A DNA stretch of 64,000 nucleotides from Escherichia coli (GTDB taxonomy: Bacteria > Pseudomonadota > Gammaproteobacteria > Enterobacterales > Enterobacteriaceae). Positions within the stretch are counted from its first letter, which is position 1, and every line of letters begins with the position of its first letter. Below the pieces are notes generated by a model. That model was not told the origin of the DNA. It saw only the letters and a program-made list of their open reading frames with translations, and did not search any database. The stretch lies in assembly GCF_036507355.1 (NCBI RefSeq), contig NZ_AP027877.1. One strand, given 5' to 3'. Of this stretch, positions 2,017-58,846 are shown piece after piece. The translations under genes and the position numbers were made by a program.

Positions 2017-4241
2017 GCTCTTTCCTTATTCAAACAGGGCTTCAATATCGTTAATTAGCTCGCTGGCGGTGATGGCATCGAGTACGGAGAACTGCGCTTC
2101 CTGTGTTGAATTACTCCCCCAGCCATAGCTTTCTGCGTTGCCTTCCCATAGCCACAGCTTGCTTAAGATTTGCTCGGCACTCAGTTCGGCTGGCGACATG
2201 CCTACCGCAAAACCTTCATCGATTTCCATGATTAACGACCAGCGGCCCAGAGGTTTGATCATCCAGCCGATCCAGCCTCCATCCTGCGGGGTGCCCTTTA
2301 TCCAGCCTTTATTCGCCAGCCCCATGACCCGACCGCTCGGGTATTTTCTGCCTGCCCAGCGGGTCAGTTCGCTGGCGTTGCGCTCGGCTTCTGTCAGGGC
2401 GTAACTGTTACGGTCAAGCTGACGGAACGGTGGTAGCAGTTCATAGTCGGCAAAAAGCTGACCAAAGGCGGCAGCATCCGTCGGTGATATTTCCAGAACG
2501 TGAGGAATGCCAACAGAGATATCGCCTTCCGGCAGGGTGAAAAGATCATCGTCAGCGGTGCTGTAGCTGTTATCTTCCGCCACGCGGAAGCACGTCAGTA
2601 GCTGGTTTTCGGTGCTATAAACGCCCCAAATCAGACGGCGGGTTAAGTGGCGTACCAGTGGATGTTCAACCAGGAAGAGCTGAAAGTTTTCTGGCGACCA
2701 GCGGCGACGCAGGCACATGGCGGATTCCAACCTTGCTACCTGCTGGGCGGCGACGGTACGCGCATCTTTTTTCAGCAGTTTGTAGCGGTTAACAGCATCG
2801 TTCGCCTGTGATTCATCATCGCTTTTGTTTGGTTTGGGCAGGTCTTTCAGACGGCTGCCAGAAACATCACGCACAAACGGTTTTAAGGTTTCATCAAAGC
2901 TGACGGTGAACTGGCGTGAGCCGAAATCCAGCAGCAACGAACCGTTATCATCCAGACCGAGATCCGGTGCTAACCGATCTTCAAGCTCTGCCACCGTGAG
3001 TTCGCGGCTCTCGGCAATGTCGGCAATTTTTTCTTTTGCCCGCTCCTGTAATGCTTTGAATTTCAGTTTCTGGGCGATGCCGTTAAGCTGCATCAGGGCG
3101 ATATCACTACCGATAGCAGCGAGAATATCCAACCCAACGGTGGCGCGTTTATGCTGGGATTCACCAGGCCAGGCGCGGATTAATGGCGTCAGTTTGCGGG
3201 CGGTGTCGTCGTTACCGAGAACGCCTAACGCAGCGAACGCCCAACTCTCTTTCGACGGCGCGCCAGCGGTCTGCCAGGCGGTAAACAGATCCCAGGCAAA
3301 TCCCGCCAGTGAGTCGGCGGTACAGGCATCTTTCACCTGCAATAATCCCGGATACAGAGCCTCTTCCTGAGGGAAGCGGAGCATTTCACCGAGGTGGAGG
3401 AGGGCGCTATCTGGCAGTACCTTGCTGCTATTTTTGAGTTTCGGGCGAGTCCATAATGGAGGTTGATAAAACAACGGTAAAGGGGGGATTTTCGCCGGGT
3501 ATTTACCCACAGGACTGTTGTCGTTATTTTTATTTTGAGTTTCCCAGGGCGGCGAGACTAGTACCATTGGTAGAATTTCTGAGTTTGCAAAATCTTCATT
3601 GCGACTATTCAGCAATTGCTGACATTGTTGCAATAAATTTGCCGCTTGCGACGATAATCCGATGACTAATTTTTCGACCAATAAAGAATTTGCATTAAGT
3701 AATGAAACCAGCAATGTATGTTTGCGTTTATCATCTTTTTTTACCAATGCTTCGGCTAATGCCACTATCGTTGCAGAAGGAAAATTTTCGGCACTTTTTA
3801 TTAGTCGTTCATAACAGCGTTTATTAGTATCGGCGGCTTCGATGAGTGCCGTAATGGCCAACGGATGATTAATACATTTCAGTACGTCACCGCAATTATC
3901 TTCTTCAGCATAGGGAGCCAGGCGAGCCAGTGCCGCTATACCTTGCTCCCGTAATACCGTAGCTGACCAACTGGCACCATAGGTGTTAAATACATCAATG
4001 TATTGATAGTTCTCCAGTATTTCGAGCGTGAATGGATCTGTCGCTACCAGTTTCAACATTTCAAGTTGTGGAACATCTACGACCTGGTGTAAACGATGTA
4101 CGATCTCATGGGCCACTTCGGGTATTTCTGGCATTAAAATGGCAATTAACGGTTGGCGATAGAGTGATATATCTGGTAACGCAACGAGTAATTTTGCAAT
4201 GCAATTTTGCCATACTTCTTCTTCTGGGTAATGACTCCAAC

Positions 4242-4745
4242 TTATTGATAGTGTTTTATGTTCAGATAATGCCCGATGACTTTGTCATGCAGCTCCACCG
4301 ATTTTGAGAACGACAGCGACTTCCGTCCCAGCCGTGCCAGGTGCTGCCTCAGATTCAGGTTATGCCGCTCAATTCGCTGCGTATATCGCTTGCTGATTAC
4401 GTGCAGCTTTCCCTTCAGGCGGGATTCATACAGCGGCCAGCCATCCGTCATCCATATCACCACGTCAAAGGGTGACAGCAGGCTCATAAGACGCCCCAGC
4501 GTCGCCATCGTGCGTTCACCGAATACGTGCGCAACAACCGTCTTCCGGAGCCTGTCATACGCGTAAAACAGCCAGCGCTGGCGCGATTTAGCCCCGACAT
4601 AGCCCCACTGTTCGTCCATTTCCGCGCAGACGATGACGTCACTGCCCGGCTGTATGCGCGAGGTTACCGACTGCGGCCTGAGTTTTTTAAGTGACGTAAA
4701 ATCGTGTTGAGGCCAACGCCCATAATGCGGGCTGTTGCCCGGCAT
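4242..4745 (-). CDS. insB: IS1 InsB (made as InsAB' fusion by -1 frameshift)
   Basis: 167-aa ORF overlapping insA in the -1 frame, as expected for IS1. Confidence 0.9.
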
Positions 4746-4939
4746 CCAACGCCATTCATGGCCATATCAATGATTTTCTGGTGCGTACCGGGTTGAGAAG
4801 CGGTGTAAGTGAACTGCAGTTGCCATGTTTTACGGCAGTGAGAGCAGAGATAGCGCTGATGTCCGGCGGTGCTTTTGCCGTTACGCACCACCCCGTCAGT
4901 AGCTGAACAGGAGGGACAGCTGATAGAAACAGAAGCCAC
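4664..4939 (-). CDS. insA: IS1 InsA
   Basis: 91-aa [43 protein letters not shown]..., identical in all four IS1 copies in the window. Confidence 0.9.
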
Positions 4940-5678
4940 TGGAGCACCTCAAAAACACCATCATACACTAAATCAGTAAGTTGGCAGCATCACCAACTCT
5001 GTAATTCCTGGTGTGATATCCGTGACGGCAGGAATGGGAAGTACCGGTAAATCAAATACGGGTATGACATTCTTTTTCTTATTTATTACCCACGGTGGAG
5101 CGACAAGCAGCTCCGGCAACATATCCACAGTGGCATATTCACATTCTTCAGCTACTGGCAGCGGACGACATTCAGATAAGATGCCTGCCGCCTTAGCATT
5201 AACCCAGGGAATGACCTCGCATACTAACTCTGGCGTGGCGGTAATCAGTTTGACAAGCGCTTTACGCCACTCATTATTTTCATGTATTGCCAGCAAAGTA
5301 GCATAAGCGGCAATAGCCGCAGCGGGATGTTTTTGGCAGGCTTTGCTTAAGTATTCCAGGTGCTTTTTCTTGCCATTTACACCGAGGATCAGAATTTGAA
5401 TCGCATCCGGGTGATTCGTTTTCCATAGCCATTTGACAAGATTTTCAGTCTCGCTGATGCGTTCGAAGAGATAAGTGGGATTGTCAGAATGGTCTTCCGT
5501 AAACTAAAGAAGTATCCGGCTTACACCGCGCACCCCAGATACTGCTCTGAGTACAGTGGAAAAATACGATTTCCCACCGTTGTATCGTGATTTTCGTAAT
5601 TTTCGCGCTTATCTGGCAATGTTGTTGGCAAATAATGAGGTGTACTGGCAATAGCGGACACTACCATTTGTTCTTTTT

Positions 5679-6497
5679 TTAAGCAGCCATCTGATGATAT
5701 TTTTCCCTGAAGGCTGCCGGGGAGATATTCCCCAGACGAGAGTGACGACGCTGACGATTGTAGAAAATCTCAATGTATTCCCGTATTACTGAGATGGCTT
5801 CATCCCGGTTATTAAAACGATAGTGGCTCAGGCTCTCATTTTTCAGCGTTCCCCAGAAGCTTTCCATCGGAGCGTTGTCGTAACAGTTACCTTTACGCGA
5901 CATTGATGTTTTCAGACCAAACTGCTCCTGTATGACCCGGTAATCGTATGCGCAGTACTGTGAACCTCGATCAGAGTGGTGGATTAGCCCGGCAGGTGGG
6001 CGCTGGCTCCTGAGCGCCATAAACAGGGCTTTACCTGTCAGCTCTTTTGTCATGCGCTCTCCCATGGCGTAGCCGACAATTTCGCACGTATAAACATCTT
6101 TGATGCCAGCGAGGTACAACCATCCCTCCTGTGTGGCAACATACGTCAGGTCCGCCACCCAGACCTGATTTGGTGCTGTAGGAGCGAACGTCTGGTTCAG
6201 CAGATTTGGCGCAACTGGCAGATTGTGGTTCGAGTTCGTAGTCGCTCTGAACTTGCGTTTCTGCTTACAGCGTAGCCTTAGCTCCTTACGAAGACGTGCC
6301 AGTCGGTCACGACCAACGATGATGCCATTCTCTGCCAGCTCCGTCTGGAGCCGCCGGGTTCCATATGTTTCGCGAGTGCGGATATGTGCCACCTTAATCT
6401 CCAGTTTTAGCCGCTCATCACTTTGTTTTCTGTCTGAGGGTTCATGCTGTACCCAGTTGTAATAACCGCTCCTGGATACACCAAATACCTGACACAT
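5679..6497 (-). CDS. IS3-family transposase OrfB (DDE catalytic part)
   Basis: 272-aa ORF with DDE integrase-core motifs (VWVADLTY...HSDRGSQY...NAPMESFW). Confidence 0.85.
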   Translation of the reverse strand: MCQVFGVSRSGYYNWVQHEPSDRKQSDERLKLEIKVAHIRTRETYGTRRLQTELAENGIIVGRDRLARLRKELRLRCKQKRKFRATTNSNHNLPVAPNLLNQTFAPTAPNQVWVADLTYVATQEGWLYLAGIKDVYTCEIVGYAMGERMTKELTGKALFMALRSQRPPAGLIHHSDRGSQYCAYDYRVIQEQFGLKTSMSRKGNCYDNAPMESFWGTLKNESLSHYRFNNRDEAISVIREYIEIFYNRQRRHSRLGNISPAAFREKYHQMAA

Positions 6498-6532
6498 CGC
6501 TTCAATGGGAAATTGTTGTCGCCATTGTTCGA

Positions 6533-6832
6533 TTAACGCGTATTTTTCAGCGACTCCTGTGCAAAATACGTTGCTTTTTTTAATATATCTCGCTCAAGGC
6601 GAGCTTCATTTAACGCCTTACGCAGTTGCAGAATTTCAGATTCCAGTTCAGCCACCGTGCGGGAACCAGGAGTACCGAGCCCTTTTCTGGCGGCGGTAAC
6701 CCATTGTCCTAAAGTGCCTTCAGGAAGAGATAATCGGGAAGCGCCTTCACTGATCGAAAGTTGATTTTCAAGAACCGTTCTGACAGCTTCGGCTTTGAAC
6801 TCTTTAGAGTAACGTTGGGTTTTTCTGCTCAT
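6533..6832 (-). CDS. IS3-family transposase OrfA (HTH/leucine-zipper part)
   Basis: 99-aa ORF MSRKTQRYSKEFKAEAVRTVLENQLSISEGASRLSLPEG... Confidence 0.85.
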   Translation of the reverse strand: MSRKTQRYSKEFKAEAVRTVLENQLSISEGASRLSLPEGTLGQWVTAARKGLGTPGSRTVAELESEILQLRKALNEARLERDILKKATYFAQESLKNTR

Positions 6833-7939
6833 TATTAGCTCCTTCTGATGCCATTCTATTTCAGGAAGGAGTGTCCGTTAAACTCAGGCTACCTCAATCA
6901 TCGGTTATCACCAGTCTTAACCAGGTCATCGCCGGGACGTTTTGGTCTGCATAGCGTAGAGCTATAGCATGGGCGATATCCGGGCGTTCAGGGAGCAGTA
7001 ACGCCGCAAAAGGTTGCCGTGCGGGGGATAGCGTCGGAATGGCGGTGAGTACTTTATCTACACAGCGTTGCCACTCATCTTCTGAAGCGAGTGAAAGATG
7101 ATGACATAGACGTTGATGCCAACTAGGTAGCGATTCTGCTTTGTGATTAGGTGGAATGATGGTGGTTACTGCGCCTTTTACTGGTTTATATTTGAGTTGA
7201 AGGGCAAAAAGGACGATTTCAACGGCGCTTTCCAGACCACAGCGAATGACTAAGTCATCGACCAGTTCATCTGCAGAGTAAGAGTTCCAAAAACTCCAGA
7301 GCAATGCTGCATCAGATTGCGCACTCCCTGTCTGTTGATTATCCAGAATTCGCCTTTGTAACTCAGCAAAAGCCTGCTGCCAGTTTTCAGGATAAGAGCG
7401 GTAATTGTTGTCGGGATCATATGCCCTGGTGTTATTCGCGATGCGTTGCCATATTTGACCATCTTTGTGCAGATAATTGATCTCTCTGGGGCGAGAACGA
7501 TGAGGAAAAGCAAATCGATTAATATCGCCAGTTATCGGAATGACTGCGTCATCAACCAGCCATGGGCGTTGGATTTTACTCTCAGGGGAAGATTCAACTT
7601 CAGGAGTGGCTTTGGTGATGGGGGGGATATGCACGTTTGCTGAAGCATTTTCTACATAGCCTTTTTTCGTTTTCTCTGCGATCAGCTTAAGCTTCGCTTT
7701 TTCCGCTGCTGCAACATCAGCAAAATTTTTTACCTGGCTTTGCCCTTGGGTACCAACTTTCCCCCAGCTGATATGCAACTCGTTTCCCTGCTGCTCCACC
7801 GCCCAGAATTTATGTGATTTTTCGTCCTGATAGATATAACTCTTCATCCGCGTTCCCTGTATTTATATCCAGTTATAAGCGGATGCTAGCAGTTAATGAA
7901 AAAAATTAAGAGCGTTGAACAAACAAGAAAACAACTTTA

Positions 7940-7976
7940 GGAATTTATAAAGAAAAGGCGCTGTCGATGCAGCGCC
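7940..7976 (-). terminator. Rho-independent terminator downstream of metG
   Basis: Hairpin GGCGCTG-TCGATG-CAGCGCC at 7957..7976, followed on the minus strand by TTTTCTTTAT. Confidence 0.55.
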
Positions 7977-7987
7977 TTGAAGGGGGA

Positions 7988-10021
7988 TTATTTCACCTGA
8001 TGACCCGGTTTAGCACCGGCATCCGGGCTTAGCAGGAAGATATCTTTCCCGCCAGGACCGGCAGCCATCACCATGCCCTCAGAGATACCGAAGCGCATTT
8101 TACGTGGTGCCAGGTTAGCCACCATAATGGTGTGACGACCAATCAGTGCCTGCGGATCCGGGTAGGCAGAACGAATGCCAGAGAAGACATTGCGTTTTTC
8201 ACCGCCGAGATCCAGCGTCAGGCGCAGCAGTTTGTCAGAACCTTCAACAAACTCTGCGTTTTCAATAAGCGCCACGCGCAGGTCAACTTTAGCGAAGTCG
8301 TCAAAGGTGATGGTTTCCTGAATCGGATCATCTGCCAGTGGGCCAGTAACTGGCGCGGCAGCTGCTTTCACTTCTTCTTTAGACGCTTCCACCAGTGCTT
8401 CAACCTGCTTCATATCGATGCGGTTATACAGCGCTTTGAACGGATTCACTTTGTGGCCCAGCAGAGGTTGCTGGATACCATCCCAGGTCAGTTCTGTATT
8501 GAGGAATGCTTCTGCGCGCTCGGTCAGTTTCGGCAGTACCGGCTTCAGGTAAGTCATCAGCACGCGGAACAGGTTGATGCCCATTGAGCAAATCGCCTGC
8601 AGGTCAGCATCGCGGTCTTCCTGTTTTGCCACCACCCACGGAGCCTGTTCATCGACATAGCGGTTAGCCAGATCAGCCAGCGCCATGATTTCGCGCACTG
8701 CTTTACCAAATTCGCGGCTTTCCCACGCTTCACCAATCACTTCAGCGGCATCAGTGAAGGTTTTGTACAACTGCGGGTCAGCCAGTTCGCTTGCCAGCAC
8801 ACCGTCAAAACGCTTGTTGATAAAGCCCGCATTACGAGAGGCCAGGTTAACCACTTTGTTAACGATATCAGCATTCACGCGCTGAACGAAATCTTCCAGG
8901 TTGAGATCGATATCATCAATGCGCGAAGAGAGTTTCGCAGTGTAGTAGTAACGCAGGCTGTCGGCGTCAAAATGATTCAGCCAGGTGCTGGCTTTAATAA
9001 AGGTACCGCGAGACTTAGACATCTTCGCGCCGTTCACCGTCACATAGCCATGAACAAACAGGTTGGTCGGCTTGCGGAAGTTGCTGCCTTCCAGCATTGC
9101 TGGCCAGAACAGACTGTGGAAGTAAACAATATCTTTACCGATGAAGTGGTACAGCTCGGCGGTGGAGTCTTTCTTCCAGTATTCATCGAAGCTTACGCTG
9201 TCGCCGCGCTTGTCGCACAGATTCTTGAAAGAACCCATATAGCCAATCGGCGCATCTAGCCAGACGTAGAAATATTTACCCGGCGCGTTCGGAATTTCAA
9301 AACCGAAGTACGGCGCGTCGCGGGAGATATCCCACTGTTGCAGGCCAGATTCAAACCACTCCTGCATTTTATTTGCCACCTGCTCCTGCAACGCACCGCT
9401 GCGGGTCCATGCCTGCAACATTTCGCTGAAAGAGGGCAGATCAAAGAAGAAGTGTTCAGAATCACGCATTACCGGCGTAGCGCCAGAAACCACCGATTTC
9501 GGCTCGATCAATTCAGTCGGGCTGTAGGTCGCGCCGCAGACTTCGCAGTTATCGCCGTATTGATCCGGGGATTTACATTTCGGGCAGGTGCCTTTTACAA
9601 AACGGTCCGGCAGGAACATGCCTTTTTCCGGATCGTACAGCTGAGAGATGGTGCGGTTTTTAATAAAACCGTTTTCTTTCAGGCGAGAGTAGATAAGTTC
9701 TGACAACTGGCGGTTCTCTTCGCTGTGCGTCGAGTGATAGTTGTCATAGCTGATGTTAAAGCCTGCGAAATCAGTCTGATGCTCCTGACTCATTTCGCCA
9801 ATCATCTGCTCCGGGGTGATACCCAGCTGCTGAGCTTTCAGCATGATCGGTGTACCGTGGGCATCGTCGGCGCAGATGAAGTTGACCTCGTGGCCGCGCA
9901 TTCGCTGGTAACGGACCCAGACATCAGCCTGGATGTGCTCCAGCATATGGCCGAGGTGGATTGAGCCGTTAGCGTACGGCAGTGCGCACGTCACCAGAAT
10001 TTTCTTCGCGACTTGAGTCAT
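7988..10021 (-). CDS. metG: Methionine--tRNA ligase
   Basis: 677-aa product from [31 protein letters not shown] (HIGH motif), KMSKS present, C-terminal tRNA-binding domain. The ORF track's start 3 codons upstream (MPTM) is probably an over-extension. Confidence 0.95.
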
Positions 10022-17361: not shown

Positions 17362-17622
17362 ATACTCTCCACTTTGGGGATCAGTAAAATCAGTCGTATA
17401 TCTTTCCCGCCATACAATATAACCGACAAGAGATATTTTGTTAGTGATCCCGTGATTTCGTAAAAAGTGTAAATGAAAGGATGTAGCAAAAGCATCCTCA
17501 TTGAGCGAGAAGTGAGCGGAATAAGCTGATTTAAGAATCATCCTGGGCTAAAAGGATAGCGAAGCCCGGTGATGCTGCCAACTTACTGATTTAGTGTATG
17601 ATGGTGTTTTTGAGGTGCTCCA

Positions 17623-17898
17623 GTGGCTTCTGTTTCTATCAGCTGTCCCTCCTGTTCAGCTACTGACGGGGTGGTGCGTAACGGCAAAAGCACCGCCGGA
17701 CATCAGCGCTATCTCTGCTCTCACTGCCGTAAAACATGGCAACTGCAGTTCACTTACACCGCTTCTCAACCCGGTACGCACCAGAAAATCATTGATATGG
17801 CCATGAATGGCGTTGGATGCCGGGCAACAGCCCGCATTATGGGCGTTGGCCTCAACACGATTTTACGTCACTTAAAAAACTCAGGCCGCAGTCGGTAA
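17623..17898 (+). CDS. insA: IS1 InsA
   Basis: Identical 91-aa InsA. Confidence 0.9.
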
Positions 17899-18320
17899 CC
17901 TCGCGCATACAGCCGGGCAGTGACGTCATCGTCTGCGCGGAAATGGACGAACAGTGGGGCTATGTCGGGGCTAAATCGCGCCAGCGCTGGCTGTTTTACG
18001 CGTATGACAGGCTCCGGAAGACGGTTGTTGCGCACGTATTCGGTGAACGCACGATGGCGACGCTGGGGCGTCTTATGAGCCTGCTGTCACCCTTTGACGT
18101 GGTGATATGGATGACGGATGGCTGGCCGCTGTATGAATCCCGCCTGAAGGGAAAGCTGCACGTAATCAGCAAGCGATATACGCAGCGAATTGAGCGGCAT
18201 AACCTGAATCTGAGGCAGCACCTGGCACGGCTGGGACGGAAGTCGCTGTCGTTCTCAAAATCGGTGGAGCTGCATGACAAAGTCATCGGGCATTATCTGA
18301 ACATAAAACACTATCAATAA
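17817..18320 (+). CDS. insB: IS1 InsB
   Basis: Identical 167-aa InsB. Confidence 0.9.
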
Positions 18321-18355
18321 GTTGGAGTCATTACCGCGAAGCCCAGGTGATTGTT

Positions 18356-50600: not shown

Positions 50601-50803
50601 ATGACATCCGGGCTGGCACCTGGGTAGAGCGTGACCACCTGAATGGTCGGATAGTCCACTTCCGGCAGCGCCGAAACGGGCAGGGCGCGATAACCGATAA
50701 TCCCGGCGAGTAAGATCGCCACCATCAGCAGCGTGGTGGCCACAGGACGCATAATAAACAGGCGCGACGGGCCGCCTGTGCTGCTCGGAGGTAACACCTG
50801 CAT
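47681..50803 (-). CDS. mdtB: RND multidrug efflux pump subunit MdtB
   Basis: 1040 aa RND permease. Confidence 0.95.
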
Positions 50804-52050
50804 CAGGAGCGTGCTCCTTTTTTCGCGTATTCGCGGCTGGTGGCTTTCTCTTCCGGAGTGGTGGCGCTCTGGGCTTCCACCACTTCCACTTTCGCCCCTT
50901 CGGTCAGGCGATCAATGCCGTCTGTCACCACGCGATCGCCCGCAGAAATACCTGCGCGGATCACCACTTTCTGACTGTCCTGAATGCCCGGCGTCACCAG
51001 ATGTTTGCTGACCTTGTTTTCGCTATTCAGCACCCAGACAAAATGGCCTTCATTGCCCATTTGCAGGGCGGCGGTGGGGATCACTACGGCGTTTTGTTCG
51101 GTGTCGACTAACATGCGCGCGTTAACAAACTGATTGGGAAACAGCGCATCATCCTGATTATTAAAGCGTGCTTTCACTTTAATCGTACCGGTAGTGGCAT
51201 CGATTTGGTTATCGAGACTTAACAGCGTGCCTTCACTTAATTTCTTCGAGTTGGTGCGATCCCAGGCTTCTACCACCAGCGGTTTCCCGGCTTTTTGCGC
51301 CTGCATAACGGTAGTGATATCGCTTTCCGGCAGGGTAAAGACTAAATCGATAGGATGCGTCTGGGTGATCACCACAATTCCGGTGGTATCACCACTGGAG
51401 ATTTGGTTACCGACATCAACCTGCTTGAGACCAACGCGACCATCGACTGGTGCGGTGATGCGGCTCCAGTCGAGTTGCAGCTGTGCGCTGGCGACGCTTG
51501 CTTCATCAGCCTTAATGGTGCCTTCGGTTTCACTGACCAGCGCTTGTTGGGCATCCAGTTCCTGACGAGATACGAGATTGGTTTTTACCAGTTGTTGATA
51601 ACGCGCCAGGTCACGGCGGGCGTTGGCAAGCGTGGCTTTATCTTTTGCCAGTTGGCCCTGGGCTTGTGCTAATGCAACTTTGAACTGGCTGGGGTCAATT
51701 TCTGCCAGTAAATCGCCTGCTTTGACCTGCTGGCCTTCCTGGAAATGTAACGCCATCAGTTGACCGTCCACGCGGCTACGCACCGTAACAGTATTAGCAG
51801 CGGTAATAGTGCCAAGCCCGGTGAGGTAACGCGGAACTGCCTGTTCTACGGCGGTCGCCGCCTGAACCGGGGCTAATGGGCCGGAACGCATACCACGGCG
51901 ACCACCCGCTGGCGATTGCTGCGCTTGTTTCGTCGCCCCTGGGGCTGCACTCTGGGAGTCATTGCGGCCTTGCCAGAACCAGAATGCGGCGATGGCGGCG
52001 ATAACCACCACGATTACGATTACCCAACGGGATTTATAACTGCCTTTCAT
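50803..52050 (-). CDS. mdtA: RND membrane-fusion (periplasmic adaptor) protein MdtA
   Basis: 415 aa from [19 protein letters not shown]-track start 52197 is a 49-codon upstream extension. Confidence 0.9.
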
Positions 52051-52289: not shown

Positions 52290-52435
52290 GCCCCTCCCGA
52301 GGAAGGGGCCATAAATAAGGAAAGGGTCATGATGAAGATACTCATCATCGTGGCGCTCTTAGTGATTAGCTACCCAGCATACTAAGACTACCAGGGCGGG
52401 GGAAACCCCGCTCTACCCTCACTCCTGAAAGTATG
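52290..52435 (-). ncRNA. sib: Sib antisense sRNA (antitoxin) overlapping ibs; ends approximate
   Basis: In Ibs/Sib loci the Sib RNA is encoded fully antisense to ibs; hairpin CCCCTCCCGAGGAAGGGG lies upstream of ibs (candidate Sib terminator on the minus strand). Confidence 0.35.
52329..52385 (+). CDS. ibs: Ibs-family type I toxin (18 aa)
   Basis: ATGATGAAGATACTCATCATCGTGGCGCTCTTAGTGATTAGCTACCCAGCATACTAA encodes MMKILIIVALLVISYPAY; good RBS (AAGGAAAGGG) upstream. Confidence 0.75.
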   Translation: MMKILIIVALLVISYPAY

Positions 52436-52721
52436 CCTTCACGTTCAGAATGTCAATCCGCAGGCTTTGCAGTCTGCGATCCTGCCAGCAAATATTCTTT
52501 GCGAGACGTTACGCAATAATCACAGAGGAAACTATTTTGTTCACGCGTTAGCGATAGACTGAATTCAGGGCGAAAGGAGGTAAGCCGACGATTTCAGCGG
52601 GACGCTGAAACGGGAAAGCCCCTCCCGAGGAAGGGGCCTTAAATAAGGTAAGTTGCACATTTAAAATCTCTTTAATTATCAATAAACTACAATGTATAGG
52701 TCATTATTAGTCAAAATAAAA

Positions 52722-53612
52722 TCATTTGTTGATTTCAATTTTGTCCCATTCTCTCCCTCGGCTATCCCTATACCGCGCCGCCATTGAATCTGATTTATGT
52801 CCGAGAAGACGTTGAGCAAACTTATCGCCAATCTGATTCCGGTATAGCCTCGCCGACAGGCTACGCAGTTCATGGAATGTTGGTGGGTCTCCATCAAATG
52901 AGAGTCCAGATGCATTTCTCGCCTTTGTAAAATACTTCGATACTGTTTTCGGGGAAAGCGGTTCGTGATGCGTTGAGGCGATTATAGTTTCACTGCCGCT
53001 GGCCTCCCTGCATTTCTGTAGTGTATCAGCCAATGAGATATTGAGCGCGTCAATCGTTAGCATCAGCGGAATGGCGAGCTTAGCCCCTGTTTTACCCTGT
53101 TCAATGTGAAGATGGTTGTCGTTTATGTCTGACCATTTCATTCTGCACAAATCGCCGACTCTCTGCCCTGTAACGACAGCCGAATCCATCGCCAGTCTTA
53201 GCCAGATTGGGAGAGGTTCGGCTGCATGGTAAATCGCGACATACTCATTAGCTGTCAGCCTTGAGCGCCTTACTTCTGACTTTGCTGTGCGGGTTGCTGT
53301 TACCGGATTCGTTTCCACATGCCCCTCGGCTATTGCCTCACGAAAAACGTCAACAAGGGTTGACCTGATTAATTTTGCGGAAGCCGCTTTACCTTCTGCT
53401 ACGTAGGTGTTTAGCATTGCTGCCACCTCTTTCGTTGATATGTCAGCGAGCGGTTTGTCCGGCAATTTTCTTCGGATTGCCCTGATTTTGCTGGCGTAGT
53501 CGAGTAGAGTTTTCGTCCTGATCCCCCTCTCGCTGAGGATTGTTTCATATCGGTCAAGCCACGCATGAAGAGTGATTACGTCAGCGCCTTTAATCCTGTC
53601 TATCAGTGAGGT
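52722..53612 (-). pseudogene. int: Lambda-family tyrosine integrase, C-terminal fragment (truncated by IS600-like insertion)
   Basis: C-terminus ...HELRSLSARLYRNQIGDKFAQRLLGHKSDSMAARYRDSRGREWDKIEINK resembles the lambda Int C-terminus (catalytic R, H-x-x-R, Y). Frame remains open upstream of the first Met up to the IS600 end at 53613. Confidence 0.8.
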
Positions 53613-54122
53613 AGCCTGAGTTTAACGGACACTCCTTCCTGAAATAGAATGGCATCAGAAGGAGCTAATAATGAGCAGAAAAACCCAACGTTACTCTAAA
53701 GAGTTCAAAGCCGAAGCTGTCAGAACGGTTCTTGAAAATCAACTTTCGATCAGTGAAGGCGCTTCCCGATTATCTCTTCCTGAAGGCACTTTAGGACAAT
53801 GGGTTACCGCCGCCAGAAAAGGGCTCGGTACTCCTGGTTCCCGCACGGTGGCTGAACTGGAATCTGAAATTCTGCAACTGCGTAAGGCGTTAAATGAAGC
53901 TCGCCTTGAGCGAGATATATTAAAAAAAGCAACGTATTTTGCACAGGAGTCGCTGAAAAATACGCGTTAATCGAACAATGGCGACAACAATTTCCCATTG
54001 AAGCGATGTGTCAGGTATTTGGTGTATCCAGGAGCGGTTATTACAACTGGGTACAGCATGAACCCTCAGACAGAAAACAAAGTGATGAGCGGCTAAAACT
54101 GGAGATTAAGGTGGCACATACG
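53613..54122 (+). mobile_element. IS600-like element, 5' fragment only
   Basis: Left end TGAGGTAGCCTGAGTTTAACGGACAC at 53613; complete OrfA (53671..53970, identical to the other copy); OrfB matches only for about 38 residues (MCQVFGVSRSGYYNWVQHEPSDRKQSDERLKLEIKVAH) then diverges. Confidence 0.75.
53671..53970 (+). CDS. IS3-family transposase OrfA
   Basis: Identical to the 99-aa OrfA at 6533..6832. Confidence 0.85.
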   Translation: MSRKTQRYSKEFKAEAVRTVLENQLSISEGASRLSLPEGTLGQWVTAARKGLGTPGSRTVAELESEILQLRKALNEARLERDILKKATYFAQESLKNTR

Positions 54123-54149
54123 GTAACAAGCCGATACATGCCACACGCA

Positions 54150-54747
54150 TTACTCACCCTCTTTGATGCGAATGCCAGCGGCGCGTGGCACATTAACTTC
54201 CACGATGCGCACTGTTGGTTTGTACATCTCAATCGCTGTCAGCCAGTCAGCTCCTGTCATGCGCTTTTCCGCATCGCCATTAGTCCACTGAACCGGTACA
54301 CCAATAGCCTTCATCGCGATTTCTATTTCCCCGGCAATGGCGCTTTTTCCGCAACCAGTAAAACCAGAAACAACGACAAGAACTTCACCTTTGGCTGGTT
54401 TTATTTCCCGTGCTTCCAGTTCTGCAATGCGCTTACTTCCATCCGCGATTACTCCCTCGTAATATTCACGCTGCTCGTTGAGTTTTGATTTTGCTGCTTC
54501 AAGCTCAACTCTCAGCTTCCCTACCGTTAGCGCAATATCCTCGTTCTCCTGGTCACGGGATTTGATGTATTGCTGGTTTCTTTCCCGTTCATCCAGAAGC
54601 GCCAGCACGGTTGCCGGATTAGCCTTGGCAACAAAATCACGGACTGGCTTACAATCAATCTCAGCAATGGGTTGATACGATGTGTATCCATGCTGTCTTG
54701 TATAACTACCGTGACGAATAACGAAAAAATCACCATTTATTTTTTTA
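54150..54747 (-). pseudogene. Phage early-region protein fragment (Ead/Ea22-like, tentative), N-terminus removed by IS1
   Basis: Reading frame enters from inside IS1 (the ORF-track start codon lies within the IS1 end); C-terminal part ...LVVVSGFTGCGKSAIAGEIEIAMKAIGVPVQW. The family assignment is by resemblance only. Confidence 0.4.
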
Positions 54748-54771
54748 GCCTGCCACGGTAATGACTCCAAC

Positions 54772-55275
54772 TTATTGATAGTGTTTTATGTTCAGATAAT
54801 GCCCGATGACTTTGTCATGCAGCTCCACCGATTTTGAGAACGACAGCGACTTCCGTCCCAGCCGTGCCAGGTGCTGCCTCAGATTCAGGTTATGCCGCTC
54901 AATTCGCTGCGTATATCGCTTGCTGATTACGTGCAGCTTTCCCTTCAGGCGGGATTCATACAGCGGCCAGCCATCCGTCATCCATATCACCACGTCAAAG
55001 GGTGACAGCAGGCTCATAAGACGCCCCAGCGTCGCCATCGTGCGTTCACCGAATACGTGCGCAACAACCGTCTTCCGGAGCCTGTCATACGCGTAAAACA
55101 GCCAGCGCTGGCGCGATTTAGCCCCGACATAGCCCCACTGTTCGTCCATTTCCGCGCAGACGATGACGTCACTGCCCGGCTGTATGCGCGAGGTTACCGA
55201 CTGCGGCCTGAGTTTTTTAAGTGACGTAAAATCGTGTTGAGGCCAACGCCCATAATGCGGGCTGTTGCCCGGCAT
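54772..55275 (-). CDS. insB: IS1 InsB
   Basis: Identical 167-aa InsB. Confidence 0.9.
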
Positions 55276-55469
55276 CCAACGCCATTCATGGCCATATCAA
55301 TGATTTTCTGGTGCGTACCGGGTTGAGAAGCGGTGTAAGTGAACTGCAGTTGCCATGTTTTACGGCAGTGAGAGCAGAGATAGCGCTGATGTCCGGCGGT
55401 GCTTTTGCCGTTACGCACCACCCCGTCAGTAGCTGAACAGGAGGGACAGCTGATAGAAACAGAAGCCAC
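55194..55469 (-). CDS. insA: IS1 InsA
   Basis: Identical 91-aa InsA. Confidence 0.9.
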
Positions 55470-55548
55470 TGGAGCACCTCAAAAACACCATCATACACTA
55501 AATCAGTAAGTTGGCAGCATCACCGCCTGCCACGGTAATGACTCCAAC

Positions 55549-56052
55549 TTATTGATAGTGTTTTATGTTCAGATAATGCCCGATGACTTTGTCATGCAGC
55601 TCCACCGATTTTGAGAACGACAGCGACTTCCGTCCCAGCCGTGCCAGGTGCTGCCTCAGATTCAGGTTATGCCGCTCAATTCGCTGCGTATATCGCTTGC
55701 TGATTACGTGCAGCTTTCCCTTCAGGCGGGATTCATACAGCGGCCAGCCATCCGTCATCCATATCACCACGTCAAAGGGTGACAGCAGGCTCATAAGACG
55801 CCCCAGCGTCGCCATCGTGCGTTCACCGAATACGTGCGCAACAACCGTCTTCCGGAGCCTGTCATACGCGTAAAACAGCCAGCGCTGGCGCGATTTAGCC
55901 CCGACATAGCCCCACTGTTCGTCCATTTCCGCGCAGACGATGACGTCACTGCCCGGCTGTATGCGCGAGGTTACCGACTGCGGCCTGAGTTTTTTAAGTG
56001 ACGTAAAATCGTGTTGAGGCCAACGCCCATAATGCGGGCTGTTGCCCGGCAT
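55549..56052 (-). CDS. insB: IS1 InsB
   Basis: Identical 167-aa InsB. Confidence 0.9.
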
Positions 56053-56246
56053 CCAACGCCATTCATGGCCATATCAATGATTTTCTGGTGCGTACCGGGT
56101 TGAGAAGCGGTGTAAGTGAACTGCAGTTGCCATGTTTTACGGCAGTGAGAGCAGAGATAGCGCTGATGTCCGGCGGTGCTTTTGCCGTTACGCACCACCC
56201 CGTCAGTAGCTGAACAGGAGGGACAGCTGATAGAAACAGAAGCCAC
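55971..56246 (-). CDS. insA: IS1 InsA
   Basis: Identical 91-aa InsA. Confidence 0.9.
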
Positions 56247-56296
56247 TGGAGCACCTCAAAAACACCATCATACACTAAATCAGTAAGTTGGCAGCA

Positions 56297-57112
56297 TCAC
56301 CCTTCCTTGATTCTTTTTTCTTCTGCTATTCTGGCTTGCTCTTTTGCTTCAGCCTCGCGCCGGATTCGTTCAGCCTCCTCCTGTGCTTTTCTGCGTTCTG
56401 CTTCAATTGCTGCCTGCTTTTCTCTTTCAGCTCGTTCTGCTGCCTCTTTTGCTTCGCGCTGTGCTCTCTGCTCGGCTTCAATGCGTTCACGCTCTGCACG
56501 TTCCGCTGCGGCCTTAGCTTCTGCTTCTCGCCTTGCTGCTGCTTCAATTTCGGCTTTTGCCTTTGCTTCGGCTTCAGCTCTGGCTTTCTCTTCAGCTTCT
56601 CTTTTTAAGCGTTCTTCATGCTCTCGCTTTTCCTGCTCCGCTTTGAGTCTTGCCTCTTCTCTTTGGCGGTCAAATTCGCGATCCATCAAAATCGCTATTT
56701 CATGGTCAGACTCAATTTGCTTTGCGAGAGCTTCAGCTGCTGCCTTAGCTTCTTCTTCGGCTTTAATCCGCGCCTGTTCTTCCTCATAATCAGTAAGAGG
56801 CTGGCGCGCCTTGGCTTTCAGTTCATCAAGGCGATCGCGCACTGTCTTGCGGTTGGCATCAATTAGCTTTGGAATTTCCTTCAGTTCAGCAACAAGGTCT
56901 TTGCCAAGACCATCGAGATATGTTTTCGTCTGCGCAACTTTATACGCCAGAGAAGCGATCTCCTTTCTGCCCTTTGCCGTTGTGATATCAGGCACAAAGG
57001 ACATAACTTCACGTTCAACCTTTTGAAGGATTTCTTCAATCTGGTCGGCAGACTGAAATACAGTCATTGCATTTGCTTTTTCAATAACAACTAAATCTGT
57101 TACTTCACTCAT
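56297..57112 (-). pseudogene. Phage protein with E/A/K/R-rich coiled-coil, C-terminally truncated by IS1
   Basis: Probable start MSEVTDLVVIEKANAMTVFQ at 57112, preceded by GGAGG. Long EAKAAAEALAK / REAEAK low-complexity helix; the stop codon TGA is supplied by the IS1 terminus (GGTGATG). Confidence 0.5.
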
Positions 57113-57246
57113 ATATCCTCCATCAAAAAAATTGCCCTCACATCGGAGGGCAAAGAAGATTTCCAATAATCAGAACAAGTCGGCTCCTGTTTAGTTACGA
57201 GCGACATTGCTCCGTGTATTCACTCGTTGGAATGAATACACAGTGC

Positions 57247-57450: not shown

Positions 57451-57674
57451 TCACCTCCCAGAGCCTTGCTGATTGCTGCAAGACCTTTATTAACAGCTCC
57501 ATACCATTCTGGATATGTTGTCGTTGTTCTATTTTTGGATTGCTTAAGTAATAACTGAAGTGCTTCGAGAAGGTCAGGTGCTGCCGCTATTAGATTGGCA
57601 TCTTCAATACATTGAACTGAATCGCCACGGGTTTAACAGACACCTCAGAGTCATTTAAGATGGCTTAAAGAGAG

Positions 57675-57959
57675 GTGCCCATGAGCGGTAAGCGTTATCC
57701 CGAAGAGTTTAAAATTGAAGCAGTCAAACAGGTTGTTGATCGCGGTTATTCTGTTGCCAGCGTTGCAACACGTCTCGATATCACCACCCACAGCCTTTAC
57801 GCCTGGATAAAGAAGTACGGTCCGGATTCTTCCGCTAATAAAGAACAGTCAGATGCTCAGGCCGAGATCCGCCGTCTCCAGAAAGAGCTGAAGCGGGTTA
57901 CCGACGAACGGGACATATTAAAAAAAGCCGCGGCGTACTTCGCAAAGCTGTCCGACTGA
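57675..57959 (+). CDS. IS3-family transposase OrfA
   Basis: 94-aa ORF MPMSGKRYPEEFKIEAVKQVVDRGYSVASVATRLDITTHSLYAWIKKYG... Confidence 0.85.
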   Translation: MPMSGKRYPEEFKIEAVKQVVDRGYSVASVATRLDITTHSLYAWIKKYGPDSSANKEQSDAQAEIRRLQKELKRVTDERDILKKAAAYFAKLSD

Positions 57960-58015
57960 GGTACGCCTTTATCCGTGACAACACCTGTTGCTGGCCTGTT
58001 CGCCTGCTCTGTCGG

Positions 58016-58828
58016 GTGCTGGATGTTCATCCCAGTGGTTTTTACGCCTGGCTTCAGCAGCCGCATTCACAACGCCATCAGGCAGACCTGAGGCTGACAG
58101 GGCAGATTAAACAGTTCTGGCTGGAATCGGGATGCGTCTATGGTTATCGCAAAATCCATCTGGATCTGCGGGACAGCGGGCAACAGTGCGGAGTGAACAG
58201 AGTCTGGCGACTGATGAAACGTGTCGGGATAAAGGCTCAGGTCGGATACCGGAGCCCGCGGGCACGTAAAGGCGAGGCCAGTATCGTGTCGCCCAACAGG
58301 CTCCAGCGACAGTTCAATCCGGATGCTCCGGATAAGCGTTGGGTAACGGACATAACCTACATCAGGACCCACGAAGGCTGGCTGTATCTTGCCGTGGTTG
58401 TTGATCTGTTCTCACGCAAAATTATCGGCTGGTCCATGCAATCCCGGATGACAAAGGACATTGTCCTGAACGCACTGCTGATGGCTGTATGGCGCCGTAA
58501 TCCCCAAAAACAGGTGCTGGTTCATTCGGATCAGGGCAGTCAGTACACAAGCCATGAGTGGCAGTCGTTCCTGAAATCACACGGCCTGGATGGCAGCATG
58601 AGCCGTCGCGGTAACTGCCATGATAATGCGGTTGCAGAAAGCTTTTTCCAGTTGTTGAAACGCGAACGGATAAAGAAAAAGATCTACGGAACGCGGGAAG
58701 AAGCCCGCAGCGATATTTTTGATTACATCGAAATGTTTTATAACAGTAAGCGTCGGCATGGTTCCAGCGATCAGATGTCACCGACAGAATATGAAAACCA
58801 GTATTATCAACGGCTCGGAAGTGTCTAG
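58016..58828 (+). CDS. IS3-family transposase OrfB (DDE)
   Basis: 270-aa ORF with DDE motifs (WVTDITY...HSDQGSQYTS...NAVAESFF). Confidence 0.85.
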   Translation: MLDVHPSGFYAWLQQPHSQRHQADLRLTGQIKQFWLESGCVYGYRKIHLDLRDSGQQCGVNRVWRLMKRVGIKAQVGYRSPRARKGEASIVSPNRLQRQFNPDAPDKRWVTDITYIRTHEGWLYLAVVVDLFSRKIIGWSMQSRMTKDIVLNALLMAVWRRNPQKQVLVHSDQGSQYTSHEWQSFLKSHGLDGSMSRRGNCHDNAVAESFFQLLKRERIKKKIYGTREEARSDIFDYIEMFYNSKRRHGSSDQMSPTEYENQYYQRLGSV

Positions 58829-58846
58829 ATTATCCGTGGCGATTCA

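Follow-up and report, generated by a model that had tools for sequence, protein, structure and literature searches.

How did a lambda-type integrase gene come to stop short at the end of an IS600 insertion sequence (IS), and what has become of the prophage to which it belonged? The locus lies in Escherichia coli, within a 64,000-nucleotide (nt) stretch of contig NZ_AP027877.1 (assembly GCF_036507355.1), hereafter the window, of which a first-pass annotation had read positions 52722–54747 as nested decay at the left end of a prophage, i.e., an integrase cut by IS600, an IS600 itself truncated, and a next phage open reading frame (ORF) cut by IS1, together leaving the prophage unable to excise. 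The analysis presented here indicates that the locus is very probably the left arm of a defunct lambdoid prophage carrying O-antigen glucosylation (gtr) genes, disabled through several independent events involving mobile elements and deletions. Four features carry most of the argument:

52722–53606, minus strand: truncated lambda-type integrase gene (int′), codons 64–357 plus stop; arm-binding domain, start codon and promoter missing.
53607–54120, plus strand: IS600 5′ fragment with left inverted repeat, orfA (53671–53970) and the first 38 orfB codons from the ATG at 54006.
54118–54121, no strand: deletion junction, at which IS600 nt 514 meets phage DNA located 29 nt beyond the stop codon of the Ea22-like gene, with 2–3 nt of microhomology (ATA).
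54150–54756, minus strand: truncated Ead/Ea22-like gene, about 20 N-terminal codons missing; apparent TTG start at 54770 inside IS1.

The int′ frame is open over 294 codons, from 53606 leftward to the stop codon at 52722–52724, and ends at the left end of IS600, in keeping with the first-pass claim of an integrase cut by this element. It aligns without gaps to residues 64–357 of intact 357-amino-acid (aa) integrases, with 96% aa identity to that of E. coli VL40 and 97.6% identity to that of a prophage occupying the same site in E. coli Z1323CEC0007. Pfam recovered Phage_integrase (PF00589, E = 1.4e-39), the SAM-like core-binding domain and the central domain in int′, and did not find in it the Arm-DNA-bind_1 domain (PF09003) that is present at residues 1–68 of intact homologues. 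Moreover, alignment to residues 66–355 of lambda Int (5j0n, E = 1.6e-137) revealed that the catalytic residues R212, K235, H308, R311, H333 and Y342 are conserved. The frame enters IS600 without a native start, and the gene has lost exactly its arm-binding domain, start codon and promoter, with no other decay. As such, int′ resembles lambda Int lacking the arm-binding domain (the C65-type fragment), which likewise consists of the core-binding and catalytic domains (approximately residues 66–355), but it differs in being a genomic pseudogene whose start codon and promoter are not in place. C65-type Int fragments can bind and cleave core sites, and are not known to perform arm-dependent attL × attR recombination.

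The boundary between int′ and IS600 was correctly recognized in the first-pass annotation, but its position, given as 53613, was six bases off, with the left terminal inverted repeat of IS600 beginning at 53607 with TGAGGTAGCC. At this point intact int genes continue with TGACTCACGCC, whereas the window continues with TGAGGTAGCCTGAG, i.e., the left end of IS600. Because the first three IS600 bases (TGA) equal the next three bases of int, integrase alignments overlap the element and reach 53609. The IS600 piece measures 514 bp and is identical at 514 of 514 positions to the first 514 bp of a complete copy elsewhere in the window (5636–6896, minus strand), after which the similarity between both copies ends abruptly. 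The pairwise alignment by which the first-pass annotation proposed to probe its own reading thus confirmed a truncation (estimated there at about 510 bp, comprising OrfA and about 38 orfB codons), and a different, naturally shorter element is ruled out by the 514/514 identity. The 519-nt repeat arms reported by a repeat search included five additional flanking bases, some of which are mismatched, and the copies in fact share 514 nt. Compared with the annotated 1264-bp IS600 of E. coli 10205, the fragment corresponds to nt 1–517 (99.4% identity), and three nt (CAG) of that element are missing from both window copies, so the full-length window IS600 is 1261 bp. This full copy, at 5636–6896, has no target duplication.

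Within the fragment, orfA is complete (99 aa, Pfam HTH_Tnp_1) and points away from int, and this 99-aa allele is widespread in E. coli. Neither an rve/DDE domain (Pfam) nor the right inverted repeat (sequence inspection) was found in the fragment, and the second copy of the 3-bp target duplication has been lost. Judged from its sequence, the piece is a fragment rather than a functional member of IS600. Its orfA would encode a DNA-binding protein without catalytic activity and is the only complete frame in 52722–54747, the rest being pseudogene fragments. A blastn search with full IS600 returned only two loci in the window (the fragment at 53607 and the full copy at 5636–6896) and no other piece of the element. 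A comparable event is found in E. coli 10205, where a related integrase gene (93–97% nt identity) is interrupted by the full 1264-bp IS600, flanked by a 3-bp AGC duplication. There, however, the insertion occurred at another codon (window-equivalent 53065–53067) and the element is complete, whereas here it lies at 53606/53607 and the 3′ 747 bp of the element have been lost.

At the other end of the fragment, from 54121 onward, the window contains phage DNA that is found just downstream of the Ead/Ea22-like gene in several unrelated phages and prophages, with the stop codon of the Ea22-like gene at 54150–54152. With a slash marking the breakpoint, full IS600 reads ...CACATA/TCCGC, phage phiV10 reads ...GGATA/CGGTAAC, E. 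coli Z1323CEC0011 reads ...GGGTA/CGGTAAC, and the window reads ...CACATA/CGGTAAC. The longer alignment is GGCACATA/TCCGCACT for full IS600, GTCGGATA/CGGTAACAAG for phiV10, GTCGGGTA/CGGTAACAAG for Z1323CEC0011 and GGCACATA/CGGTAACAAG for the window. From a break internal to the IS together with microhomology, we infer illegitimate recombination rather than transposase action; a truncation of IS600 made by its transposase was rejected, with the break situated inside the element rather than at its end. The nested decay proposed earlier therefore holds as a succession of events but not as literal nesting: IS600 was cut by a microhomology deletion, not by another element. The three junctions described in the first-pass annotation are not due to chance, as each rests on perfect or near-perfect matches hundreds of bases long.

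In the same-site prophage of Z1323CEC0007, the gene order runs from int (357 aa) over an excisionase gene and three small ORFs to the Ead/Ea22-like gene. By comparison with this relative, about 2.2 kb of phage DNA and 747 bp of IS600 would have been lost; one deletion, rather than the IS600 insertion alone, would have removed xis. Tblastn and blastn searches of the 64-kb window found neither xis, nor the int N-terminus (63 residues), nor any other part of the missing ~2.2 kb. No genome with the int′–IS600 fragment–Ea22′ configuration (at least 80% cover of 53450–54300) was found among 5,426 complete E. coli genomes, the junction 40-mer was absent from JGI metagenome contigs, and no exact protein match was obtained for the truncated int ORF (247 aa) or the Ea22′ ORF (206 aa); the IS600/Ea22 junction is therefore without independent confirmation.

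Alternatively, the IS600 3′ half, the int 5′ end and xis might reside elsewhere in the chromosome, displaced by an inversion or translocation with its breakpoint inside IS600. The genome is IS-dense, several IS copies in the window are without target duplications (typical of IS-mediated rearrangement), the inspected part of the genome amounts to 64 kb, and the same-site relative has a rearranged right end, with pphA instead of ibs. Nevertheless, the breakpoint lies in the body of the IS, at 2–3 nt of microhomology, and not at an IS end or between IS copies, the missing segment is found nowhere in the window, and beyond the junction the same prophage arm continues, oriented and ordered (int ... 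Ea22-like) just as a simple internal deletion would have left it. We therefore consider such a rearrangement very unlikely. Still less probable is an assembly artefact, in which the 514-bp IS600 would be a collapsed or mis-joined repeat and the true locus would hold a full IS600, whether or not accompanied by the missing phage genes: while IS600 is multicopy and no independent assembly was recovered across the junction, mis-joins fall at repeat boundaries, whereas the switch occurs here mid-repeat, onto unique sequence and at microhomology, and neighboring junctions of the remnant are reproduced in independent assemblies. Equally improbable is that the IS600 5′ fragment was kept as useful, with orfA acting as a trans-regulator of IS600 transposition (in the IS3 family, e.g., IS911, IS2 and IS3, OrfA binds the inverted repeats and modulates transposition), for although nothing is missing from orfA, the region upstream of it or the left inverted repeat, all of which match the full copy at 100%, a recent event would leave the same perfect identity over 514 bp, full IS600 copies in the genome already make OrfA, and conservation of the fragment in other genomes could not be shown.

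Returning to decay by a series of independent insertions and deletions, its further traces lie to the right of the Ea22-like gene:

54748–54756 and 55525–55533, no strand: 9-bp target duplication GCCTGCCAC flanking the first IS1, identified by flank comparison.
54757–55524, minus strand: IS1 copy a, 768 bp, complete, with the perfect 9-bp duplication GCCTGCCAC.
55534–56301, minus strand: IS1 copy b, 768 bp, complete, no duplication (left flank GCCTGCCAC, right flank CTTCCTTGA).
56302–57166, minus strand: truncated TolA-like early-left phage gene, abutting copy b; about 53 C-terminal codons missing, stop supplied by IS1.

The ORF at 54150–54770 contains the Pfam domain Ead_Ea22 (PF13935, E = 2.8e-26) but has lost its native start along with some 20 N-terminal codons. 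In the intact homologue WP_338929414 the sequence is VSEINYQALREAAEKAGEDK/WQAKKINGDFF..., while the window product starts at WQAKK. The apparent TTG start (54770, minus strand) is located 14 nt inside IS1 (54757–55524) and phage-derived sequence begins only at 54756, so that the next phage ORF indeed begins inside IS1, as had been noted. On the far side of the IS1 pair, the TolA-like gene (phrog_1376) is 99% nt identical to positions 7255–8072 of phage APC_JM3.2 (where the gene spans 7095–8063), and its shortened product was also recovered from an independently assembled read set.

The window contains four IS1 copies, which do not differ from one another. Copies a and b are arranged head to tail, 9 bp apart, and the intervening 9-mer repeats the left flank. 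The target duplication of IS1 is usually 8–9 bp (PMC12428005). Copy a, with its perfect 9-bp duplication, shows the usual size, whereas the pair departs from the usual single-copy outcome by consisting of two copies head to tail with only the duplicated 9-bp flank between them. The tandem may have arisen either when a second IS1 landed in the 9 bp next to an existing copy, or when an IS1 unit was integrated or duplicated together with its flank. Shiga et al. are said to have reported IS1 circles in 1999, and integration of an IS1 circle carrying flank bases could have produced the tandem. As in IS1-associated adjacent deletions, copy b has no duplication and bridges two phage genes that are about 2.7 kb apart in relatives: in APC_JM3.2, the sequences flanking the IS1 pair are separated by that distance (4565–7254), and the comparator interval holds an anti-RecBCD gene, the recombination module, kil and cIII. 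Copy b would thus mark a loss estimated at about 2.7 kb, encompassing the recombination module, kil and cIII of the comparators. The two other IS1 copies in the window lie at 4227–4994, without a target duplication, and at 17568–18335, with the duplication GCGAAGCCC; they face in opposite orientations on either side of a 12.5-kb segment, possibly an inversion or a composite unit.

The right-hand part of the remnant is delimited by two further features:

57618–58846, plus strand: complete IS3-family element, 1229 bp, no target duplication (AAC vs. ATA), ends TGAATCGCCACGG...CCGTGGCGATTCA.
59580–62342, minus strand: gtrABC cassette, with gtrC 59580–61067, gtrB 61054–61983 and gtrA 61980–62342; adjoins attR.

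The IS3-family element was considered as a second IS600-like copy and rejected (its OrfA is 36% identical and there is no nt match to IS600). It would mark the place of the lost prophage center, i.e., of the immunity, replication, lysis and virion genes. The roughly 730 bp to its right carry only a weak signal for a tailspike C-terminus (E = 4e-4), and in three draft assemblies with the same GtrC the contigs break where the element sits. The gtr products match Glucos_trans_II, Glycos_transf_2 and GtrA_DPMS_TM in Pfam, and cassettes with genes of the same lengths, 99.2% identical at the nt level, are present in 32 complete E. coli genomes. It is apparently an intact O-antigen glucosylation cassette, and its genes are the sole intact-looking phage genes of the remnant. 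A comparison of GtrC (495 aa) with 50,697 phage records gave no close relative, the best match reaching 25% identity. In strain 3347558, the only one of the 32 cassette genomes that was examined, the cassette belongs to an SfV-like myovirus prophage located next to ybhB/bioA, which shows that it is passed between different phage backbones.

The extent of the remnant follows from its two attachment (att) cores:

52637–52648, no strand: attL core CCTTAAATAAGG, host/phage junction at 52648/52649, within the second sib/ibs unit and next to mdtA.
62686–62697, no strand: attR core CCTTAAATAAGG, directly upstream of ibs copy 2 (ATG at 62706) and its antisense Sib RNA.

The host region comprises mdtABCD-baeSR on the minus strand, with mdtA last (approximately 50803–52050), and, to the right of mdtA, a tandem sib/ibs type I toxin-antitoxin array of three units. 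Matches to Rfam SIB_RNA were obtained at 52314–52456, 62691–62833 and 63020–63168 (all minus strand), and the three Ibs ORFs start at 52329, 62706 and 63035. Between the first and second Sib genes lie 10,037 bp of foreign DNA bounded by copies of CCTTAAATAAGG, a 12-mer that occurs only twice in the window (52637–52648 and 62686–62697). Phage homology begins at 52649, the host flanks at both cores are successive units of the array, and host sequence is continuous across the core, as expected of prophage att sites. A 94% repeat (52309–52608 vs. 62686–62985) likewise represents successive host array units and not phage-borne homology. The integration parts ibs copy 2 from the repeat that precedes the other ibs copies.

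A lambda-type int lies at exactly this attL junction in at least 11 complete E. coli genomes, and the window is colinear with the same-site prophage of Z1323CEC0007 from mdtB over the sib/ibs units and attL into int up to 53609 (97.8% identity). In the searchable literature, no description of a prophage att site at ibs/mdtA/yegL was found. The Z1323CEC0007 prophage (NZ_CP148463.1) has its left end at ibs/mdtA and its right end flanked by pphA/yebW, and carries nleG7, pointing to an inversion of the chromosome between two lambdoid prophages of this strain. Integrases with 94–97% nt identity over the retained region occupy three different chromosomal sites, the junctions of which are similar but not identical: TTAAATAAGG/TAAG here, TTAAGGTGAA/TAAG beside torS and TTATGACATGG/AAG near yfaA.

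Between the cores are found int′, the IS600 fragment, Ea22′, two IS1, TolA′, small ORFs, the IS3-family element, a possible tailspike tail-end and gtrCBA. These parts fully account for the 10,037 bp, and the immunity, replication, lysis and virion modules of a functional temperate phage are missing. The decay noted earlier at the left end is thus real but extends more widely, to a 10-kb remnant with two tandem IS1 and two further large losses. The share of IS DNA is 33% for the remnant and 9.5% for the window as a whole, an IS load typical of Shigella or enteroinvasive E. coli chromosomes, which would point to a host of that type. IS1 and IS600 belong to the IS that have expanded in the published reference chromosomes of Shigella and that lie behind much gene loss (PMC7373316).

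Taken in sequence, the decay probably proceeded as follows. Int-mediated integration took place at the 12-bp core CCTTAAATAAGG in the sib/ibs array, where both cores survive. IS600 would then have inserted into int between codons 63 and 64, at the boundary of the arm-binding and core-binding domains, as its left junction indicates. Subsequently, one illegitimate, transposase-independent deletion via 2–3 nt of microhomology, with its junction visible in the window and its extent estimated from relatives, would have removed the IS600 3′ 747 bp, int codons 1–63 together with the start codon and promoter, xis, and about three early genes (approximately 2.2 kb). IS1 activity, the place of which in the order is presumed although its junctions are present, would have removed about 2.7 kb between the Ea22-like and TolA-like genes and left two IS1. 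Finally, the whole prophage center would have been lost, as marked by the 1229-bp IS3-family element.

Several points weigh against this history. Early-left regions are mosaic, and the deletion sizes (about 2.2, 2.7 and 30 kb) are estimates from relatives, not from the true parent phage. Moreover, the right-hand target duplication of IS600 is gone, so that simple transposition into int is not provable from both ends, an independent assembly spanning the IS600-fragment/Ea22 junction was not found, and the IS600 and deletion events cannot be ordered relative to the IS1 and IS3-family events.

Since neither xis nor int 5′ sequence is present in the window, autonomous excision is lost. The remnant, with neither a usable Int nor Xis, is predicted to be incapable of self-excision, replication and particle formation while keeping gtrABC. 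The earlier statement that the prophage can no longer excise accordingly stands for autonomous excision (no xis and no arm-binding domain in the window) but not as a total loss: both att cores are intact, and excision in trans by a related Int/Xis is possible.

Among known elements of this kind, CPS-53/KpLE1 of E. coli K-12 is a roughly 10-kb remnant with intS and yfdGHI. In Shigella flexneri, gtr clusters are situated inside cryptic prophages without structural, replication and lysis genes and with transposases (PMC5596473). These cryptic gtr prophages (defective SfI/SfII-type, gtrIC regions) are, like the remnant described here, short remnants that keep gtrA-gtrB-gtr(type) beside att, have lost structural, replication and lysis genes, and contain many transposases (PMC5596473, PMC4924310). 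In contrast, the remnant has its att in the sib/ibs array beside mdtA, whereas the Shigella and K-12 gtr prophages use thrW-proA, tRNA-Pro or argW; its integrase is a close lambda Int homologue, unlike those of the Shigella and K-12 gtr prophages compared; and its GtrC is unrelated to the type-specific Gtr of sequenced Shigella phages (at best 25% identity among phage records). The S. flexneri gtrIC island itself was ruled out as a counterpart, as it lies at tRNA-Pro between yejM and yejO (PMC4924310).

The events at this locus are IS-driven prophage decay of an ordinary, well-documented kind, explained by known processes and not new in kind. For annotation, the ORFs at 52722–53465/53606, 54006–54488 and 54150–54770 each represent a truncated or chimeric product and are best marked as pseudogenes or disregarded, and the 514-bp remainder of IS600 does not qualify as a copy in counts of IS elements. 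The locus also serves as a worked example of how an IS-rich, Shigella-type genome immobilizes a converting prophage and keeps its cargo, gtrABC. That the remnant is a selected, immobilized lysogenic-conversion island rather than neutral debris seems unlikely. If it were, loss of the int arm-binding domain and of xis would have fixed gtrABC, with a GtrC type unlike those of sequenced phages, in the chromosome, at an att site inside a sib/ibs type I toxin-antitoxin array where one ibs toxin gene would have been split from its upstream repeat.

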